Of a stretch of DNA of 8,446 nt, positions 1-8,446 are shown in pieces (within the stretch, counting starts at the first letter, position 1; each line of letters starts with the position of its first letter). The notes beneath the pieces are model-generated. The model searched no databases and was not told the DNA's origin. It worked only from the letters and a program-made list of their open reading frames with translations. The stretch covers positions 1-8,446 of the IMG/VR virus record IMGVR_UViG_2684622670_000004, one strand, 5' to 3'. This DNA comes from a virus (lineage: Duplodnaviria > Heunggongvirae > Uroviricota > Caudoviricetes). The position numbers were made by a program, and so were the translations under genes.

Positions 1-57
1 TGCACTCCATGTGTTAGCCGTGCTCAACAGGGGGATCTTTTCACCGCTTGTGCCAAG

Positions 58-83
58 TTCTCTTAAACCAAGGTTTAGGATTG
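58..83. other. Candidate cix/gix/hix-type crossover site of a DNA-inversion system (TTCTCTTAAACC-AA-GGTTTAGGATTG)
   Basis: Two imperfect inverted 12-bp half-sites (8/12 complementary) flank a central AA dinucleotide. From memory it fits the hix/gix pattern TTC..T.AAACC.AGGTTT.GGAT (about 19/26 identical to gixL as I recall it). It overlaps the stop codon (75-77) of the adjacent invertase gene. No partner site is present in the window. Confidence 0.5.
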
Positions 84-635
84 AAATGATGACGCAGGAA
101 ACTTTTTATAAAGCGTGGAAACAGCAACATCATAGATGATTGCAACCTGCTTACGGGGGATGCCATTCTCCAGCAATCGACGCATTTGCTGCCATGTTTC
201 TTCCGGGTATTTAGGTCTGCGGCCTCCTATTCGACCTTCTGCGCGAGCTGCATCAAGTCCAGCGCGTGTACGTTCAACGATAAGCTCGCGTTCCATTTCT
301 GCCAGTGCCCCCATTACGTGAAAGAAAAAGCGCCCCATTGGTGTACTGGTGTCGATGGAGTCAGTGAGACTCCGGAAGTTAATTCCTCTGTCACGTAGCT
401 CTTCCACCAGCACAACCAAGTGACGCATGCTGCGCCCAAGGCGATCTAACTTCCATACGATCAGGGTGTCACCTCTGGAAAGCATACGCAAAACCTTTTT
501 TAGCCCTGGGCGTTCAGCCTTTTTGCCGCTCGCCTTATCCTCAAAAATTAGCTCACATCCTGCGCTTTCAAGAGCGTTTCGTTGTAAAGCAGTGTTTTGT
601 TCATTTGTTGATACGCGTACATAGCCTATTAGCAT
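75..635 (-). CDS. cin: Serine recombinase, Hin/Gin/Cin/Pin-family DNA invertase (186 aa)
   Basis: N-terminal catalytic motif GYVRVSTNEQ with the active-site serine. Conserved WKLDRLGRS, SLTDSIDTS, MGRFFFHVMGALAEMERELIVERT and GRIGGR motifs, plus a C-terminal HTH (GIPRKQVAIIYDVAVSTLYKK). The symbol cin is inferred from the P1-like neighbourhood; the family call is firm, the exact orthologue (cin, gin or pin) is not. Confidence 0.9.
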   Translation of the reverse strand: MLIGYVRVSTNEQNTALQRNALESAGCELIFEDKASGKKAERPGLKKVLRMLSRGDTLIVWKLDRLGRSMRHLVVLVEELRDRGINFRSLTDSIDTSTPMGRFFFHVMGALAEMERELIVERTRAGLDAARAEGRIGGRRPKYPEETWQQMRRLLENGIPRKQVAIIYDVAVSTLYKKFPASSFQS

Positions 636-763
636 ATTTTCTGCTCACTATCGTTATTTATAGCAAGCTGCGGATTTTAATTAACAAAAAACCAGTATGT
701 GTGGAAATCACAAAGTACATACCGTTTCCCAATGAGATTTAATTCACTATTGAGGAAATAGTT
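636..763. promoter_or_regulatory. Divergent intergenic control region between the invertase gene and the lysis/dar operon
   Basis: AT-rich 128-bp spacer between divergent genes. Minus strand: possible -35 TTGTTA (plus coords 681-686) and -10 TATAAAT (655-661) with a 19-nt spacer, upstream of the invertase ATG. Plus strand: strong SD GAGGAA at 752-757, 6 nt before the ATG at 764. No clear sigma70 -35/-10 pair for the rightward operon, which would fit an activator-dependent late promoter. Confidence 0.3.
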
Positions 764-1045
764 ATGTTTGATTTCACAATAATGCTCCTCTCCATCCTTG
801 GCGGGGTGCATTCGTTTCTGAATGGGGTTCGTGAAAAACGTTACGAAGCGTCATGCAGGCAATTGATGGCCGAGTGTATTGCTGCCGTACTTGCAGGCTT
901 TATAGGCATGTATTTCGCGGAATATAAGGGTATGGATGAAAGTCTTCAGAATTGCGTGACTATTATTTGCAGCATCAATAACAGGCTCATTCTTGAAAAG
1001 TTACAAAGGATTATCGATTCGTACCTCAGTAGAAATGCCTCTTAA
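764..1045 (+). CDS. Small two-TM membrane protein, holin-like paralog of the downstream LydA-like gene (93 aa)
   Basis: ORF with a good SD. Two hydrophobic segments (FTIMLLSILGGVHSFLNGV and CIAAVLAGFIGMYFA). Clear paralogy to the next ORF (SILGGVHSFLNGVREKR vs SVIGGIGTFLMDVRDGRQ; VTIICSINN vs VTIASNN). Confidence 0.75.
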   Translation: MFDFTIMLLSILGGVHSFLNGVREKRYEASCRQLMAECIAAVLAGFIGMYFAEYKGMDESLQNCVTIICSINNRLILEKLQRIIDSYLSRNAS

Positions 1046-1086
1046 GCAACAAATGACCGGTTGAGAAGTTACTTTGCATACCATTA

Positions 1087-1106
1087 CCTCCTGACAACGT
1101 AGGAGG
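1087..1106 (+). promoter_or_regulatory. Possible SD-sequestering hairpin ahead of the LydA-like gene (CCTCCT-8 nt loop-AGGAGG)
   Basis: A 6-bp perfect stem in which the 3' arm is the AGGAGG Shine-Dalgarno of the GTG-initiated ORF at 1113. Could modulate holin translation. Seen only as sequence complementarity. Confidence 0.3.
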
Positions 1107-1112
1107 GAACTT

Positions 1113-1442
1113 GTGCTTGACACACAGGAATTAGCTCCAGTTGCTATTGCGCTCCTGCTTTCAGTAATTGGTGGGATAGGCACGTTCCTGATGGATGTCC
1201 GAGACGGTCGCCAGTCTGGCAATTTGTTGGGATTGGTTACGGAGATCTGTGTTGCAGTGACAGCTGGCGCGGTGGCGTACCTATTGGGGCAACATGAGGG
1301 CTGGGAGTTATCAATTACGTACTTAATGGTAACGATAGCCAGCAATAACGGTCATGAGGTGATTTCAGGGATGAAACGAGTGAATATCGATAGCATTCTG
1401 AATGTTCTTACAAGTTTGGTGAAAAAGGGAGGCGGGAAATGA
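1113..1442 (+). CDS. lydA: Holin, LydA-like (109 aa, GTG start)
   Basis: GTG start 6 nt after GGAGGG. Two to three predicted TM segments (LAPVAIALLLSVIGGIGTFLM, LLGLVTEICVAVTAGAVAYLLG). Its position immediately upstream of lydB-like/hdf/darA matches the P1 lysis-dar operon as I remember it. The stop overlaps the next start (ATGA). Confidence 0.75.
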   Translation: MLDTQELAPVAIALLLSVIGGIGTFLMDVRDGRQSGNLLGLVTEICVAVTAGAVAYLLGQHEGWELSITYLMVTIASNNGHEVISGMKRVNIDSILNVLTSLVKKGGGK

Positions 1443-1882
1443 TTGGCTGGGGTGTATGCGCTCTTGCGGCAGCCTTAGCTGATCGCTATTTGCTAAAACG
1501 CAAGGACATCACGAATTTAGAGCTTGGTGATGTGGAAATTAAACCGGGATTTATCCGGGTGCCGTTCAAATATCGGTCTAAATTCCCGTTTTTGCGCGGT
1601 GCAACGGTCAGATATTGGATCCGTGATGTTCAGAAGCCGACGACAGTGATTGAAGGCGAACAACGTTGCCTGACGTCGGCTGAACAGGGCGAAAACAGTG
1701 AATGGTTGTACATACCCACTGAATATATGGGTAAAGGAGAACGACTGTGGCATTTCAACGTCATGGTTACGCACGGCGACTCGTTCATTAACCCGTTGTA
1801 TCGGATTTTCCCTGTTACTCAGCAAATCCGCAGAAGTTACGTAATAAATCTCGCACAGGATGTGTCAGATGACGAAAAATAA
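1439..1882 (+). CDS. lydB: LydB-like holin antagonist / lysis regulator (147 aa)
   Basis: Start coupled to the lydA stop (ATGA overlap), with a GGGAGG SD. N-terminal hydrophobic segment (MIGWGVCALAAALA). Size and position match P1 LydB as recalled. Function inferred from synteny only. Confidence 0.65.
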   Translation: MIGWGVCALAAALADRYLLKRKDITNLELGDVEIKPGFIRVPFKYRSKFPFLRGATVRYWIRDVQKPTTVIEGEQRCLTSAEQGENSEWLYIPTEYMGKGERLWHFNVMVTHGDSFINPLYRIFPVTQQIRRSYVINLAQDVSDDEK

Positions 1883-2471
1883 GTATGCAACGGTCGATTT
1901 TGGCCAGGTTAATGAAAAGGGGCTGAAATCCCTTATCGCGGCGATCAATAAAACCGGTGTTACGGTAATTGAGGTTGACTCCAGCAACCGCGCAACAACG
2001 AAAGATGGCGTTAAAGTTAAAACCGCAAAGCTGGTTCTTAACGACGGACAAATTCTTGCCATACAGGTAAACGATACTGGTGATATATCGTCTGTGAAAC
2101 TGAATGGAAAAGCTATTCCTAATGCTCAATCGCCAGATATCAAGACGCTTGGTACCGTCATGGGGCAAGCGGCCCACAAAAACGCTGCAAAATTCCAGAA
2201 ATCACTGATCGCCAAAGCTAAACGTGTTGCCAATCCGGTAGACAAGAAACCGGCAGTTAAATCCAACTTTCAGCGCCTGCAAGAGGCAAAACAGCGGAAT
2301 GCTCAGGTGGTTGCCGCTTATAAATCCGCGCAGAACTCGGTGTCTTTCAATCAACAGCAGATCACTGATTTGCGGGCGAAGCTGGATAAGGAGACAGGTC
2401 GACTCAATAACGAAAAGGCCAGGAATGGCGAACTCAAACGCCGTCTTAAGCAACTGAAAGCAGGAAATTAA
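1860..2471 (+). CDS. hdf: Hdf, homolog of DarA fragment (203 aa; alternative start at 1869 gives 200 aa)
   Basis: Shares alignable blocks with the N-terminal third of the downstream 639-aa protein (LNDGQ-ILAIQ vs LSDGQ-TISIL; HKNAAKFQK vs EKNSAKFQR). C-terminal coiled-coil-like basic tail. The ATG at 1869 sits 9 nt after AGGA and is the more likely start. Confidence 0.75.
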   Translation: MCQMTKNKYATVDFGQVNEKGLKSLIAAINKTGVTVIEVDSSNRATTKDGVKVKTAKLVLNDGQILAIQVNDTGDISSVKLNGKAIPNAQSPDIKTLGTVMGQAAHKNAAKFQKSLIAKAKRVANPVDKKPAVKSNFQRLQEAKQRNAQVVAAYKSAQNSVSFNQQQITDLRAKLDKETGRLNNEKARNGELKRRLKQLKAGN

Positions 2472-2472
2472 C

Positions 2473-4392
2473 ATGGAACAGTTCAATATCAATAAAGGGG
2501 TGACGATTAAGCCGGGGCTTGACGTGCTTCCCCCGCCGGTGACTGATGATGAATATCGCGCATTAATGGCCGGTGAGGACCGCTATCTGATGACGGAATC
2601 CAACACCATGGAGGAAATCGAGGCTACGTTCTTCTATGACACGCCGATCCACTGGTGTACTACGGATTTACTGGAGGCGATTAGTTCTACTCGTTTGCAG
2701 TTACACCGGACCATGCAGGCATTTGTCCGGGCATTGAACCAGAAGCTTAATGGTACCGGAATCTCTGCGGGGAGTGATAAAACGGGGGATGTGGCCCAGA
2801 GCGGCACGCGAGCGATCGGCGGTGCTGAAATTGGCCGGGCACGTAACGTTAACGGGCTGCCGGTCCTGCCAGCCATTATTCCGCTCAGTGATGGTCAGAC
2901 TATCAGCATTCTGTTTCATAGCCTGACAGCGGAAAACCGGATCACCAATAGCGATACGCTGGTTGCTTTCCAGTTCTTACTGAATAAAAAAGACGTTACT
3001 CACACCGTTGCTCCGATGAGTGGACGTGATATGACGCTGGCACAGGTCACCATGAAACTTGCCAACCTTGCAGAGAAAAACTCGGCAAAATTCCAGCGTG
3101 CGCAGAAGAAGAAAAAAGCTCTTGTTGATGAAATAACCCAACTACAGGCTGACAGTGACCAGAAAGAGGATGCCATGAGCGACCTCGCGGATCAGGTGGC
3201 AGCGGTAGAAGGGCTGAAGGCAGATCTGGAGCAGAAAATTAACGCTGTTGCATCGGAAGCGGATTCTCTTTATGAAGAGAATGAGCGTTTGCAGACGGAG
3301 ATTGATCAGCTCAATCGCACAGGTGGGCGCGATACCATTGCTCCAGCGGGGATGACTGGTGGGCACTCGCGCGCGCTGACGGATCGCCTTGCCAGTATCA
3401 AAAATCGTATGCATATGAACGGGGAAGTGACGCTCAGTAATGGTGCATCAATGAAGCAATTCATTGAGGACGGCGAAGGGTATATCCAGTTAACCGATTC
3501 GGATGGCAGCGTGTACATGATCAAGGCTAAATCCATACAGGGTGTGGACATGGCAGATGCGATCGGCAAGCTGTTTAAAGCCTATAAAGCGGGTAATGTA
3601 TCGGAATATCTGGTCCAGCCAGAAGAACATAAACCAGAAAACGTCGAACCTGAACCAGCGGAGGATACCGGTAGCTCTTCGCCTGAACCAGAAGTCTCTG
3701 TAGGTGCATATCGATATGCCCTGCAAATGCGTCCGGCAGCCCCTGGCGCAATACCTGAAGGTAACAAAGCGATTCTGCCGCGCCCAGATGAAGGTGACCC
3801 GTATTATGAATATGCACGCTACGGCATTGCTACTTACGATACCCCGCTTTCTGATCAGCAAATGAGTGAGTACGACCTGAAGTTATTGCCTCGCGAGGAT
3901 TCTTTCGACTTCCTGGCGAAGACACTTACTAATGGTCCGTTTGGCAAATATGCACAAAAAGCTCTGGAGCTGGCCACCAGCTCACCAGACGAGTTCCGCG
4001 TAATGCTGAAAACTCAGTTTCAAAAAACTTTCCCCAATATTGCGTTTCCTGGGGGCGCAGGCACCGAGAAAATGGTGCAGAGCATGATCAATGCATTGCA
4101 GGCCGAAGTCGGTGAGATTACTCAACCAGAACCGGCCCCGGAACCGGCTGATGAAAAGGTTAGCGAAGCAGATGCAGAGGCTAATAAAGCCATTGAATAT
4201 CTCAATAACGTGATGGATATGCAAAGCACTGACATGGCGGAGATCCGCAACGCCAGGGGCAATGTCAGGGAAGCGATTGCTGCCCTTCAGGCTGCCGGAC
4301 GTTTTGATGAAAACGAAGAGCTGGTTAACGGCGCAGCTCGCCACCTGGCTGATCTGCTGGTAGCAATCCAGAAAGCGGGAGTAGCGGCATGA
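2473..4392 (+). CDS. darA: DarA-like capsid-internal anti-restriction / head morphogenesis protein (639 aa)
   Basis: ORF begins 1 nt after the hdf stop, with an AGGAAA SD. 639 aa matches my memory of P1 DarA. Has the internal Hdf-homologous segment, a central coiled-coil (KKKKALVDEITQLQ...EENERLQTEIDQLNR) and Pro/Glu-rich linkers (PENVEPEPAEDTGSSSPEPE; QPEPAPEPADEK). Confidence 0.8.
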   Translation: MEQFNINKGVTIKPGLDVLPPPVTDDEYRALMAGEDRYLMTESNTMEEIEATFFYDTPIHWCTTDLLEAISSTRLQLHRTMQAFVRALNQKLNGTGISAGSDKTGDVAQSGTRAIGGAEIGRARNVNGLPVLPAIIPLSDGQTISILFHSLTAENRITNSDTLVAFQFLLNKKDVTHTVAPMSGRDMTLAQVTMKLANLAEKNSAKFQRAQKKKKALVDEITQLQADSDQKEDAMSDLADQVAAVEGLKADLEQKINAVASEADSLYEENERLQTEIDQLNRTGGRDTIAPAGMTGGHSRALTDRLASIKNRMHMNGEVTLSNGASMKQFIEDGEGYIQLTDSDGSVYMIKAKSIQGVDMADAIGKLFKAYKAGNVSEYLVQPEEHKPENVEPEPAEDTGSSSPEPEVSVGAYRYALQMRPAAPGAIPEGNKAILPRPDEGDPYYEYARYGIATYDTPLSDQQMSEYDLKLLPREDSFDFLAKTLTNGPFGKYAQKALELATSSPDEFRVMLKTQFQKTFPNIAFPGGAGTEKMVQSMINALQAEVGEITQPEPAPEPADEKVSEADAEANKAIEYLNNVMDMQSTDMAEIRNARGNVREAIAALQAAGRFDENEELVNGAARHLADLLVAIQKAGVAA

Positions 4393-4754
4393 CACTATCA
4401 GCTATTGAGTTAATGGACCTCAGCGATAAGTTGGATGCTCTGATGTCCAAAGCTGCTACCGCGAGTGGCATGGAGTTGCTGGATATCAGCGATGAAATTG
4501 ACCAGATCATGCAACAGATGGGGTACGGCGCGTCCGGCGGCGGTAATGGCGAGGAAAAACAACCTTCGGTACATGATGGTATACCAAAACTGGTTGCTGA
4601 TTTCCTGGCTGATAAATTCGTCGATCAGAGCACCGATGCATTTATCGGTACGTTGCAGGACTTAAGTCAATATGTTGGCACATACATCGACCTGGACCAG
4701 GTTAAACAGCACACGGCGGTATGGATAGCCGCCAACATTAAAGAGGCAGCATAA
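4389..4754 (+). CDS. ddrA: DdrA-like small acidic protein downstream of darA (121 aa)
   Basis: Start overlaps the darA stop (ATGA), with a GGGAG SD. Acidic, with a Gly-rich loop (GYGASGGGNGEE). Position and size fit P1 ddrA as recalled. Confidence 0.65.
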   Translation: MTLSAIELMDLSDKLDALMSKAATASGMELLDISDEIDQIMQQMGYGASGGGNGEEKQPSVHDGIPKLVADFLADKFVDQSTDAFIGTLQDLSQYVGTYIDLDQVKQHTAVWIAANIKEAA

Positions 4755-4766
4755 GGCGTAACAGGG

Positions 4767-6455
4767 ATGAGTTTAAACGATCAGATAGTTATGACCACCA
4801 GCAGCGGATACAACGGTGTTGCGCCATATACCAGCTTGTTATTACATCGGGCATCCGGCATCAAAGATATTATTCACCTGATCCGGCTGCTTTCCCGCAC
4901 AGATCCCCAGGATGAACAGCTGGTACAAGTGCTTGCGCATTTTGTCCGAATCCCTGTTGCAGACGTGAAAAAATGGTGTCGATTATTCGGTATCAGCAAT
5001 TCGTTACTTCGCGGATTGTTAAATCACGCATCCTCCCTTGGGCGAGACGGCTTTGATGAGATAGCGCAGGCGATAAAAAACGGAGATATGCCACCAGCTA
5101 TTGACTGGTTTTCCATTCGCCCAACCAGGGTGAAAGCATTCCTTAGCGCGGCGCAATCAGCATCACCATTGGCAGAAATGGTTCAGAGGTTGTCGCTCAT
5201 ATTCACAGATCATACCGCGTTTGGTGATCTGGCTCTGGACGAGATGAAAGAAGCCGCCATTCAGTGGGCCGATCAACAAAATGAGGTTAACTCTGACTTC
5301 TTGCCAGCATTCAGGAAGGCCGTTAGTAAAGCGGATGATGCCCGTGGAATTATGAAGGCATTTAAGGCATTGCAAAGTCGGGTTAATAAACATGCCGGTG
5401 ATATCGATGGGGTAACGGCGGAAGGCCGGGATATCCTGAAAGAGCACGGCATAACGCCAGAATTTATTGATGAGATCAGGACGGATATGCAGCGTGAGGT
5501 CGTATCGTCTCTGCAAATCGTAGCCAGGGCGTTGGCGGATGCTAATCCGAAGAGTGCGGCCATTGTTAACCGGGTTATTGGTGATATTGAAGCATCTGAG
5601 GGCATGGGGGCACTGAAACTCTTCCTTTCGCGAGCGTTTAATCCTAACGGCAATATTCTTCCCGGCATTATTGGTGAGGCTAAAAAGTATGTCAGTGAAG
5701 AAGAACTTGAGCAGCTTGACCAACTACTTAAGCGATTCTCATATAACCCGCAGACACGCTGGCAAATGAATCAGCGAGGTATGGGTTTGGTCCACGAGAA
5801 AGTGTTATCTGCCATGAACAGTGCGATCGCAAACTCATCTGTATCTGAAGAAAAAGCTCTTGAGTGGGCCGACTCTTTTATCACGGAAGAAGTGGAAGAA
5901 GCCCGCGCTGGACAGAATGGTGGGATAGACCTGCGCAAGGAACTTGCTGATATTTATCGCCTGAGCGGCGGGAAAATATCGACCTTATCAAAGGTAGTTC
6001 ACCACCAGGGAAGGGCATATGCAAATCTAAATGGTGTTGTTGCTGTCAATTTGAACGATGAAAATGCAAGTGCACTGTGGCACGAGCTGGGTCATCATCT
6101 TGAGTACAGTAACCCTGGTTTGTTAGAGAAAGCCCGGTCATTCCTGAAGGCCAATGTTGAAGGGGATAAACCATCTTTCGTTAATATCGGTGGGCGTGGC
6201 AAGCCTGAATGGTGCTTCAGATCTCAATTGAGTAATATTTATATGGCGAAGGTATACCCGCCAGTCTCAGTAAGTAACACCGGGAAAATTCGGCAGAAAT
6301 CACCGACTATTTCCAAAACGTCAGCAACGGAAGTATTCTCTATGGCTCTTCAGTTGTATCATGACAAAGAGGCCGCTGCCGCATCACTGATGAATGGTGA
6401 CGGATTGCTGGAACTGTTATTAGGTGTGGCAAAGGAGCTAAATAATGCAGATTAA
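4767..6455 (+). CDS. HExxH-motif putative zinc metallopeptidase in the ddrB position of the dar operon (562 aa)
   Basis: Long ORF with operon-consistent codon usage. Near the C-terminus is WHELGHHLEY (HExxH zincin signature) with downstream Glu candidates (LLEKARSF; NVEGD) for the third ligand. I do not recognise the N-terminal two-thirds. I cannot confirm orthology to P1 DdrB from memory. Confidence 0.7.
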   Translation: MSLNDQIVMTTSSGYNGVAPYTSLLLHRASGIKDIIHLIRLLSRTDPQDEQLVQVLAHFVRIPVADVKKWCRLFGISNSLLRGLLNHASSLGRDGFDEIAQAIKNGDMPPAIDWFSIRPTRVKAFLSAAQSASPLAEMVQRLSLIFTDHTAFGDLALDEMKEAAIQWADQQNEVNSDFLPAFRKAVSKADDARGIMKAFKALQSRVNKHAGDIDGVTAEGRDILKEHGITPEFIDEIRTDMQREVVSSLQIVARALADANPKSAAIVNRVIGDIEASEGMGALKLFLSRAFNPNGNILPGIIGEAKKYVSEEELEQLDQLLKRFSYNPQTRWQMNQRGMGLVHEKVLSAMNSAIANSSVSEEKALEWADSFITEEVEEARAGQNGGIDLRKELADIYRLSGGKISTLSKVVHHQGRAYANLNGVVAVNLNDENASALWHELGHHLEYSNPGLLEKARSFLKANVEGDKPSFVNIGGRGKPEWCFRSQLSNIYMAKVYPPVSVSNTGKIRQKSPTISKTSATEVFSMALQLYHDKEAAAASLMNGDGLLELLLGVAKELNNAD

Positions 6456-6765
6456 AATCGCAGCGCCATTAGGCGGAGATGCCATTATCGAATTTGATGA
6501 TAATGAAGAAGTTTCCGGGCGTTTAAGCATTATCTCCGGTGACATTACCGAGGACATGATCGCTGAAGCCATAGCTGGGGCAAATCCCAATAGCTATATG
6601 GGATTCGTTAACACCCTTGATGCTCCCGCAAGTGATGTTCTCCGAACGCTGCATCTTTACGCTGGCTGGTTTGTTGATTGGCCAGCAGTAGATGGTGGCG
6701 ATGAGGATGATGATGACGATGAAGAGGGTTTTAGTGATGAAACAGTCAACCAACTCTTGTATTGA
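6445..6765 (+). CDS. Hyperacidic small protein, possible DNA-mimic-type anti-restriction factor (106 aa)
   Basis: AAGGAG SD 8 nt before the ATG. Overlaps the preceding stop by 11 nt. About 27 Asp/Glu against 3 Lys/Arg, with a C-terminal DGGDEDDDDDEEGFSDE tract. Last gene of the operon. Confidence 0.7.
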   Translation: MQIKIAAPLGGDAIIEFDDNEEVSGRLSIISGDITEDMIAEAIAGANPNSYMGFVNTLDAPASDVLRTLHLYAGWFVDWPAVDGGDEDDDDDEEGFSDETVNQLLY

Positions 6766-6894
6766 CAGGAATTGGCATAGAATTGATTGTTCAAATTTCA
6801 TCCATCACATAGACGACTTCATGTTATTTGCCTGATAATTATGGCCTTAATAACCCATGTATATCTTTTGGGTTATATTCTTATCTTTAACAAG

Positions 6895-6940
6895 GTTATA
6901 AGAGCGACAATGATAAATTTATCACTATCGCTCTTATAAC
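6895..6940. repeat. 46-bp near-perfect palindrome (21 of 23 base pairs complementary, no spacer)
   Basis: GTTATAAGAGCGACAATGATAAAT / ATTTATCACTATCGCTCTTATAAC. The only mismatches are at 6908/6927 and 6910/6925. Followed by TCTTTGTT. Lies 130 bp downstream of the operon's last stop codon. Confidence 0.85.
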
Positions 6941-6968
6941 TCTTTGTTAGCTATAGCTTTAAACAAAT

Positions 6969-7175
6969 TTAGTTTTGAGGCAATGCAACAAAAGTCAGCT
7001 CTTGATCTTTGATTAATGCTTTTGTTTGTTTGGATGTAATTCCCACTTTAGTTTTTACATCATTGTGGAGCTTCTTATACGCTTTTATTTCATCTGCTGT
7101 ATATCGGAAGCCATTTGCACTGTTACTGGACAGTTGAAGTGCGATTACGTCATCACTGACACCCGCATCGCTTAG
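6969..7175 (-). pseudogene. Start-less 68-codon protein-like open frame, possible remnant of a truncated gene
   Basis: Minus-strand frame translating to LSDAGVSDDVIALQLSSNSANGFRYTADEIKAYKKLHNDVKTKVGITSKQTKALIKDQELTFVALPQN*. It is bounded upstream by an in-frame TAG (plus 7176-7178) and contains no ATG. All three upstream frames are stop-rich. Composition is not typical of random AT-rich translation. Confidence 0.25.
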
Positions 7176-7469
7176 CTATGCGGGTAATAGTGTGGCCTGC
7201 GCGAGTGTTTGTGGTGGATATTTTGTCTAAGAAATTGTTCAGTTTTGCCATTGTTTACAACCTCTTACTTGAGTTTATTGCAAGTAGAATTGCTACTATT
7301 CTTTTGCCTCAACGAATCACAATGTACTGGAATAAGAAACTATGAGCAATACTTACGCTTTGCGAATACAGAAGATGAATAATCAACTTATTACTAAAAT
7401 GTTAATAATATTATTCTGTTACATAGTGTTCGCTATAACAATCGGGAGTTGAATGCTAATTCAATAAAT

Positions 7470-7497
7470 AAAGAACCCGCCAATTGGCGGGTTCTTT
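7470..7497. terminator. Bidirectional rho-independent terminator (AAAGAACCCGCC-AATT-GGCGGGTTCTTT)
   Basis: Perfect 12-bp GC-containing stem with a 4-nt loop. Flanked by a T-run on the plus strand (TTTTTA) and by ATTTATTTATT on the minus strand. Directly abuts the stop codon of the convergent 264-aa gene. Confidence 0.75.
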
Positions 7498-8292
7498 TTA
7501 ATCACTTTCCACTTCTTCCGTGGTGTTTTCTTGCAGTTCTGTTAATGCAGCACGACACAGGTTCCGGGCCTTGGCTATAGCCACACTTTTTACCTCATCC
7601 GTCATTGTGCAGGTAATGTACTGATCGAGTTCTTCAGCTCGGATGATGCTTTTCCCAATCATAAACTCTATTTGCCAGAGCAGATCGGCATCCATCGTCA
7701 GTATTTCAGCCTGGCCTTCTGGGCCTGCGGGGAAGCAAACATAAGACTGTTTTCCCAGGCCGATAACTCGACAACTTGCTTCAAGAATTGCGCGCTTGAG
7801 GTCTGACTTTGTAACGGAAACAGGTTGGTTTTCACCAGTGATTACGCCGTTGACATGGAAGTGGAAGGGCATGTAGCTTGAAATTCGCTCTACTTTCCAT
7901 ACGCCAGCAAGCGATCCTTCATGCAGCACAATGGGGGTAACCGCGAGTTTCATCTCACCATATAACTGCTGGCAGATAGCTGGATTGCTGAATACATCCA
8001 AAGGCTCACATTCAAACAGCGGCGCAATCTGCATGAGGTCCATCATGGTCATCCCTGGGGTCCGAGCAGTAATGAATTTGCGCATGCCAGTATCCATTGT
8101 GCGCCAGATAGCCATACCATGCTTTTTGCTCACTTCTTCAGTAAAACCAAGGTGGCACATGATGGTCTTTTCGATAGCCAGATCAGAGATAGAAACCTTT
8201 TCGCCTGGCACTCCATCATTATTGATGGTCACTTCGACACTCTGGCCATTACGTAGGCGGTATTGAATGGTTTTAGTATTTTGTGCTGTCAT
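7498..8292 (-). CDS. Hypothetical protein, function unknown (264 aa)
   Basis: Long uninterrupted ORF ending at the terminator. Weak SD (GAGAAAAGA) 14 nt after the stop of an upstream partial ORF, suggesting an operon. Contains His-rich segments (PIVLHEGS; MPFHFHVNG) but no motif I can assign to a family. Confidence 0.7.
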   Translation of the reverse strand: MTAQNTKTIQYRLRNGQSVEVTINNDGVPGEKVSISDLAIEKTIMCHLGFTEEVSKKHGMAIWRTMDTGMRKFITARTPGMTMMDLMQIAPLFECEPLDVFSNPAICQQLYGEMKLAVTPIVLHEGSLAGVWKVERISSYMPFHFHVNGVITGENQPVSVTKSDLKRAILEASCRVIGLGKQSYVCFPAGPEGQAEILTMDADLLWQIEFMIGKSIIRAEELDQYITCTMTDEVKSVAIAKARNLCRAALTELQENTTEEVESD

Positions 8293-8306
8293 AGTCTTTT
8301 CTCTGC

Positions 8307-8446
8307 TTAAAAACTGATGTATTGCGCCTTCAGGTTGGTTAGGAATGTTTTCCCACCAGCGAAAGCAATATCTCGGGGTGTTCTATTCGTTGTAGAGTAG
8401 GCCTCTGGTTTGAAGTCATCTCCCCAGCAGCCCCTCGTCAAACCGT
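8307..8446 (-). CDS. 3' end of a minus-strand gene truncated by the window edge (last 45 codons plus stop)
   Basis: Open frame from the window edge to TAA (plus 8307-8309), translating to ...GLTRGCWGDDFKPEAYSTTNRTPRDIAFAGGKTFLTNLKAQYISF*. It is 14 nt upstream of the 264-aa gene start. No start codon is visible because the 5' end lies outside the window. Confidence 0.4.
   Translation of the reverse strand, partial: GLTRGCWGDDFKPEAYSTTNRTPRDIAFAGGKTFLTNLKAQYISF

Follow-up and report, generated by a model that had tools for sequence, protein, structure and literature searches.

Hxr, the hyperacidic product of the last gene of the darA operon in P1-like phage-plasmids, as a candidate partner of the DdrB metallopeptidase module

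What is the role of the small, very acidic protein encoded at the 3' end of the darA anti-restriction operon of P1-like phages? The question is raised here by an 8446 nt stretch of viral DNA, positions 1 to 8446 of IMG/VR record IMGVR_UViG_2684622670_000004 (the window), in which an ORF encoding 106 aa plus a stop codon occupies 6445-6765 on the plus strand. A first-pass annotation, made without database searches, proposed that the product is a DNA mimic of the Ocr/ArdA type or, failing that, an acidic chaperone for packaged proteins. The ORF corresponds to hxr of phage P1. The comparisons reported here favour, with slightly less than even confidence, a reading in which DdrB has Hxr as the cognate, acidic partner of its C-terminal zincin-metallopeptidase (MPTase) module, acting either as a chaperone or as a protease gate.

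The ORF is real as first drawn, running from an ATG start to a TGA stop at exactly these coordinates. Its product is 93-94% identical to P1 Hxr (gp021, YP_006490.1) and P7 OdaA and 100% identical to a protein of phage Ro157c2YLVW, and it matches PHROG 2292 over its whole length (E 8.5e-59, residues 1-106 on profile positions 1-105 of 105). The P1 and P7 genes, hxr and odaA, are orthologs of the ORF and occupy the same position after ddrB, with the same 11 nt overlap. The window itself covers the darA region of a phage-plasmid of the P1 family (Punavirus); its nearest records are phage vB_EcoM-Ro157c2YLVW (99.8% over 6300-6900) and P1-like plasmids of Escherichia albertii. The P1 record labels hxr a possible repressor and a homologue of Xre, and this label has been propagated to many P1-like records. 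In a CRISPR interference (CRISPRi) screen, hxr was not needed for plaques to form (PMC10695390), and the literature searched contained no functional study or restriction assay of it.

The strong acidity that first drew attention to the protein holds, although the net charge, initially put at about -24, is -22 when computed (-0.21 per residue), from 25 Asp/Glu, 3 Lys/Arg (K4, R26 and R67) and 1 His. Calculation of the isoelectric point (pI) and charge distribution, as had been suggested, gave a pI of about 4.05, the lowest value that the calculator returns, and divided the charge between residues 1-80 (-10) and residues 81-106 (-12). The poly-Asp/Glu tail described earlier was located at residues 83-99 (DGGDEDDDDDEEGFSDE). 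Hxr is the most acidic of the 32 window ORFs of at least 60 aa, with DdrA second at -0.11 per residue.

Protein searches covering 5.8 billion proteins and 1.8 billion representatives returned only about 30 clusters of the Hxr family. The named hosts are all Enterobacterales (E. coli, Klebsiella, Citrobacter, Cronobacter, Enterobacter and Rosenbergiella), many members lie on contigs of 80-96 kb, and the loci examined show P1-type synteny. The family is restricted to P1-like plasmid prophages within the Enterobacterales. A 7048 aa match from the representative search (P0021) was rejected as an artefact, since the protein is highly repetitive and no one stretch of it matches. In an alignment of 23 members, with identity down to about 28%, residues P8, G53, V65, L66, R67, W75, W79 and P80 are invariant. 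Every one of the 23 has a net charge between -11 and -22 and a tail of 20-26 aa that lacks Lys and Arg and contains 30-56% Asp/Glu. Pairwise ratios of nonsynonymous to synonymous substitution (dN/dS) of hxr lie between 0.14 and 0.26. This pattern of conservation indicates that hxr is a real gene and that its acidity is conserved by selection.

An AlphaFold2 model built on the 23-sequence alignment (mean predicted local distance difference test score, pLDDT, 76) divides the protein into two parts. Residues 1-80 (6445-6684, plus strand) form a predicted folded core in the order strand, strand, strand, helix, helix, strand (beta-beta-beta-alpha-alpha-beta), with ten-residue blocks scoring 84-91 apart from 71 at residues 21-30. 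Residues 81-106 (6685-6762, plus strand) form a polyacidic tail, predicted from pLDDT and composition to be disordered, which ends in the hydrophobic tip VNQLLY; pLDDT is below 50 over residues 90-106. The composition of the tail and a terminal [IVL][VI][NY] motif are conserved, and the remainder of the tail sequence is not. The tip is mostly I-V-N, with Q-[IL]-[VL]-Y in the E. coli lineage, the only one ending in Y, and the poly-Asp run is from 4 to 8 long among near-identical E. coli hxr alleles. The charge of the core varies from -3 to -10 across the family, and three basic positions retained in most of the other members are gone from the E. coli lineage. Since core charge is not conserved, the selected trait appears to be an acidic tail combined with a folded docking domain, rather than a uniformly acidic surface.

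A mosaic junction also falls within the tail. Megablast matches to P1-type phages end at query positions 417-423 (window 6716-6722), and DNA alignment places the breakpoint with P1/P7 in the GAT/GAC poly-Asp tract of hxr at 6720-6722 (plus strand). As similarity to P1/P7 DNA ends in this tract, the final approximately 14 codons represent a different allele. The window protein ends in DEEGFSDETVNQLLY, compared with DFGDHVDQIVY in P1/P7, and is 4 residues longer, and the motif F-x-D-x-V-[DN]-Q-[IL]-[VL]-Y is preserved in its divergent end. In a metagenome contig (ERZ1749178 NODE_426, L007:8001-8555), the 184 aa Hxr protein P0007 has the whole core duplicated in tandem, with a long acidic tail on the second copy only. 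This duplication is a hint that the core normally acts as a dimer.

The core resembles nothing found in the libraries searched. All 23 members lacked a Pfam match at E values up to 10, no match was obtained in NCBIfam, and no PDB sequence matched below E 0.6. Foldseek comparisons of the model yielded no E value below 1.4 in PDB or below 0.16 in BFVD, with no resemblance to Ocr, ArdA or other solved mimics in sequence or fold searches and no similarity of the core to known chaperone or immunity-protein folds. As far as these libraries and this model go, the core is an orphan fold. PADLOC defence models matched neither Hxr nor the DdrB protein of the window nor orf264. Several more specific assignments were also rejected. 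Homology to the acidic neighbour DdrA amounts to a BLASTP match of E 0.14 over 17 residues, and orf23 of phage D6, considered as a displaced Hxr, gave an hhalign probability of 0.1%. The C terminus was also considered as a beta-clamp-type (QLxLF) motif or an SSB tip, which fails because neither the Gln nor the aromatic residue is conserved in the wider family.

The position of hxr points to its neighbour. In the window the Shine-Dalgarno sequence AAGGAG (6432-6437, plus strand) lies within the final codons of ddrB, 7 nt before the ATG of hxr, and the two genes overlap by 11 nt (6445-6455, plus strand), an arrangement indicative of translational coupling and kept in relatives. The same 11 nt overlap is common to the window, P1, P7 and Ro157c2YLVW. 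In all loci examined hxr directly follows ddrB, with an overlap of 11-17 nt down to approximately 30% protein identity. A Shine-Dalgarno sequence within the end of ddrB, followed by an ATG, GTG or TTG start, is found in P1, P7, Ro157c2YLVW, the Rosenbergiella plasmid, a metagenome contig, locus L007 and Cronobacter phage JK004. The 3' end of ddrB and the hxr core are contiguous in 478 of 483 matching plasmid records.

The link can be narrowed to one part of DdrB. The P1 protein has 995 aa, with a ParB-like domain at residues 36-167 and the zincin motif HELGH at residues 872-876. The ddrB gene of the window (4767-6455, plus strand) encodes only 562 aa and matches PHROG 2299 at positions 445-995 only. 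Alignment to the 995 aa proteins of P1 and Ro157c2YLVW reveals an in-frame loss of codons ~14-446, with a junction at about 4803-4812; the ParB-like domain (PF18763) has gone, and the C-terminal 549 residues, including the HELGH zincin C module, are retained. The same short allele, with hxr intact, is present in E. albertii plasmids pEA22_2 and NZ_CP043272. Phage D6 presents the opposite case. It carries lydA, lydB, hdf, darA and ddrA, and its DdrB, of 454 aa, corresponds to P1 residues 2-446 (64% identity) with the ParB-like domain only; neither the C module nor hxr was found in D6. Comparison of the D6 form, with the N module only, and the window form, with the C module and hxr, defines a clean boundary between two DdrB modules at about residue 446. 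Among the phage-collection records, 20 contain the hxr core and 20 carry 80% or more of the DdrB C module, the two sets agreeing in their counts for each organism; DarA occurs in these records and in D6.

Divergence among relatives is distributed in a similar way. Between P1 and Cronobacter phage JK004, identity is 90% in the N module of DdrB, 32% in the middle and 39% in the C region, with 46% for Hxr; between P1 and the Rosenbergiella plasmid the corresponding values are 59%, 23% and 36%, with ~28-30% for Hxr (the Hxr values using the window- or P1-type protein). Hxr thus follows the fast-evolving middle and C regions of DdrB and not the N module. The most basic conserved segments of DdrB are at P1 residues 888-912 and 927-950, just past HELGH. 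Before it is packaged, DdrB is trimmed to ~76 kDa, an autoprocessing step predicted to be the work of its C-terminal MPTase (PMC5512222).

That hxr always accompanies the protease half of DdrB makes a partner of this module likelier than a free Ocr-like mimic or an Xre-like repressor. In the proposed mechanism, the Hxr core would dock on the DdrB C module, and the polyanionic tail would fill the conserved basic patch by HELGH or another DNA-binding-type surface of the Dar cargo. Hxr may in this way hold DdrB soluble and off DNA, with the protease gated, in the producer cell until processing and prohead loading. That the acidic tail mimics DNA toward some basic surface of the DNA-binding type is still plausible. 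The binding of Hxr to DdrB and any influence on processing, packaging or restriction are putative. A bolder form of the proposal, in which a polyanionic gatekeeper of new fold uses its DNA-like tail to plug the basic cleft of the MPTase and so times autoprocessing and capsid loading, is considered unlikely; such a gatekeeper might possibly also serve as a DNA mimic after ejection.

The published virion proteome of P1 bears on where Hxr acts. It lists 27 proteins, and Hxr is neither among them nor in the supplement (PMC9024508). A two-peptide cut-off was used, and Hxr would yield tryptic peptides of 4, 22, 41 and 35 residues, only one of which is of convenient size, so that non-detection in virions is weak evidence. 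A peptide suited to targeted mass spectrometry is IAAPLGGDAIIEFDDNEEVSGR. Late expression, non-detection in the proteome and non-essentiality all fit a helper that acts in the producer cell, and none of them proves it.

Comparison with characterized proteins offers partial parallels for a DdrB partner. The class I chaperones of type III secretion, and the immunity proteins Im9 and barstar, are acidic proteins of ~100 aa, each encoded next to a large translocated or toxic protein and co-translated with it, which they keep inactive or transport-competent in the cell that produces it. Hxr is similarly small and acidic, and its gene adjoins, and is translationally coupled to, that of its putative cargo. 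SSB, T7 gp2.5 and T4 gp32 have acidic C-terminal tails whose targets are basic surfaces of the DNA-binding type, in cis or in a partner protein. Hxr shares with these a disordered polyacidic tail with a short hydrophobic tip; unlike the SSB type, it has no OB fold in the model, and its tip is [IVL][VI][NY] rather than D-D-D-I-P-F with a terminal Phe. Within the Dar system itself, Ulx is a small helper described as aiding the localization of DarB to the capsid (PMC9024508). By analogy, the pairs Ulx-DarB and Hxr-DdrB would each consist of a small protein encoded beside a very large, ejected anti-restriction effector, although the gene for Ulx is upstream of darB and the protein is present in virions, so that the likeness is functional only.

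In two unrelated groups of Vibrio phages, represented by VAP7 (L009:4256-4528) and D506 (L008:4067-4330), an ORF of 87-90 aa directly follows a DdrB-like zincin protein, with a 4 nt overlap or a 2 nt gap. None of the products has an acidic tail, their charge being neutral or basic. By eye they resemble Hxr, but homology was not established (hhalign ~1%; shuffle p = 0.005, 0.0125 and 0.34), and the VAP7-type sequences, of which there are two, are too few for a profile.

Several points weigh against Hxr being a DdrB partner. Co-occurrence rests on two independent natural variants only, D6 and the window/E. albertii type. In the E. albertii plasmids the short ddrB has no listed CDS and appears to be called a pseudogene by PGAP; if it is one, the retention of hxr beside it could merely reflect a recent deletion. 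The basic patch of DdrB is a sequence-level observation, and the interaction of Hxr with DdrB is deduced rather than directly observed. Gene adjacency and coupling would equally fit a co-packaged effector. Finally, as the Vibrio phage ORFs have no detectable homology to Hxr, the pairing with an MPTase is not demonstrable beyond P1-like elements.

The wider organization of the operon determines when Hxr could act. After cin (75-635, minus strand), there are two LydA-type holin genes and lydB, followed by the known Dar genes hdf (1860-2471, plus strand; Pfam DarA_N and a PHROG Hdf-like match), darA (2473-4392, plus strand; Pfam DarA_N and DarA_C) and ddrA (4389-4754, plus strand; PHROG DdrA-like match). 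The operon order is lydA-lydB-hdf-darA-ddrA-ddrB-hxr, Lpa-dependent and late. As first reported, hxr is the final gene of an anti-restriction operon, with no plus-strand gene after it. The late promoter LPdar (1066-1084, plus strand; -22 box AAGTTACTT, -10 TACCAT) is identical to that annotated in P1, and no sigma-70-like promoter site was detected in 6000-6445, the 445 bases preceding hxr. This suggests that hxr is expressed late and co-transcribed with the Dar genes. A strong hairpin ~125 nt past the hxr stop codon (6887-6950, plus strand; RNA fold -27.4 kcal/mol, z = -7.6), whose fold energy was equalled or bettered by none of 200 shuffles, probably ends the operon transcript. Located in the darA operon behind its late promoter, hxr is a conserved seventh gene of the P1-type Dar (defence against restriction) module; the system has been described as comprising 'at least six' proteins, and hxr is not among them (PMC12810830).

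Four other explanations were weighed. Ocr (T7 gp0.3) and ArdA are small, very acidic, mobile-element-encoded proteins that counter type I restriction; both are rigid folded mimics, with surface carboxylates that trace B-DNA, and are expressed immediately on entry. That Hxr is a free-standing mimic, probably dimeric and possibly packaged and ejected, which occupies the DNA-binding clefts of type I restriction-modification enzymes or other DNA-targeting defences and so titrates them, survives best of the four, and is nevertheless judged unlikely. The features on which the first-pass annotation built this idea, an extreme negative charge and a place in an anti-restriction operon, both stand, and the charge is conserved. 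The tandem duplication in P0007 suggests a dimeric core, as for many mimics; known mimics have no common fold, hence a missing fold match does not exclude one; and the cut-off of the proteome study could have missed Hxr in virions. Unlike Ocr and ArdA, however, Hxr has an unrelated predicted fold, with no similarity to any solved mimic, and carries 12 of its 22 net negative charges in the tail predicted to be disordered, the core charge being not conserved (-3 to -10). It is also the product of a late gene. Expressed only from LPdar, with no nearer promoter-like site, Hxr would have to be packaged in order to guard DNA on entry, and the virion proteome did not detect it (PMC9024508). In addition, its distribution follows the DdrB C module, hxr being missing from D6, which retains hdf, darA and ddrA. 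The chaperone that was initially offered as a fallback fits this evidence better than the mimic, its function being itself a deduction.

Somewhat less probable again is an accessory gene unrelated to Dar, hitch-hiking at the 3' end of the operon and affecting, for example, when lysis occurs, how often transduction takes place or some target in the host, perhaps a nucleic-acid enzyme. The region just downstream of hxr is a mosaic hot spot, and non-essentiality under CRISPRi (PMC10695390) fits such a gene. In contrast to the downstream morons, hxr never drops out, and its translational coupling to ddrB holds throughout the family.

An internal head protein with no specific link to DdrB, packaged as an acidic counter-ion or spacer for the basic DarA-Hdf complex or as an ejection aid, appears improbable. 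Other Dar head proteins are also acidic (DdrA, -13 in 121 aa; DarA, -33), Hdf is basic (+21), and the DNA-facing surface of DarA-Hdf is positive, with unassigned low-resolution density nearby (PMC12810830). Against this, the virion proteome does not list Hxr, D6 encodes Hdf and DarA without Hxr, and hxr is coupled to ddrB rather than to hdf or darA. The annotated role as an Xre-type transcriptional repressor, for which the P1 GenBank note cites 28% identity of residues 23-80 to an Xre phage repressor, can be set aside as very improbable, as none of the 23 members gave a helix-turn-helix (HTH) match in Pfam or NCBIfam, PDB-sequence and fold searches produced none either, a net charge of -22 with three Lys/Arg is hard to square with DNA binding, and a late structural operon is an odd location for such a gene. 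The remaining probability is reserved for explanations other than a DdrB partner and these four.

The AT-rich region downstream of hxr (6766-7497; 36-40% GC) is a mosaic hot spot that differs between relatives. It contains isaB and IS1 in P1, the nmpC porin gene in P7, a RelE/MqsA-type toxin-antitoxin pair in the Rosenbergiella plasmid and an Arc-like gene in locus L005. At about 7165-7175, comparison of the window with Ro157c2YLVW and E. albertii pEA22_2 reveals a 5 bp deletion (GCTTAGCTTAGC to GCTTAGC), which frameshifts a minus-strand ORF of 95 aa that is intact in both relatives and leaves fragments at 6969-7046 and 7153-7251; the 95 aa product has no Pfam match. A perfect 12 bp GC-rich palindrome with a T-run (AAAGAACCCGCCAATTGGCGGGTTCTTT, 7470-7497) would be a terminator-like site for a minus-strand gene of 264 aa (7498-8292, PHROG 2326). 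In the closest relatives the second large gene past hxr encodes a DUF2829/Tad2-like (Thoeris anti-defence 2) protein of 225-233 aa (PF11195, E 1.6e-22), located at L002:4993-5670 on the minus strand in Ro157c2YLVW and at L011:8499-9200 in E. albertii pEA22_2. As the 3' end of the window (8307-8446, minus strand) encodes a different C terminus, the Tad2-like gene is not present here in the same form.

P1 serves as a model phage, and plasmid prophages of its type commonly carry resistance genes in Enterobacterales. Although hxr was already known, and known to be non-essential, its core-plus-tail architecture, its link to the C module of DdrB and the division of DdrB into two modules are new, as is the refutation of the Xre label. 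The repressor annotation, copied to many genomes, is contradicted and thereby corrected here. If the proposed function is right, Hxr would be a small acidic partner or mimic protein of an anti-restriction system, and the partnership with DdrB, if true, would give access to the question of how phages process their large anti-defence effectors and load them into the capsid. Should the less likely gatekeeper form prove true, Hxr would add an unrecognized seventh member to the Dar components and, for cargo injected by a phage, provide the first example of a protease 'safety catch'.

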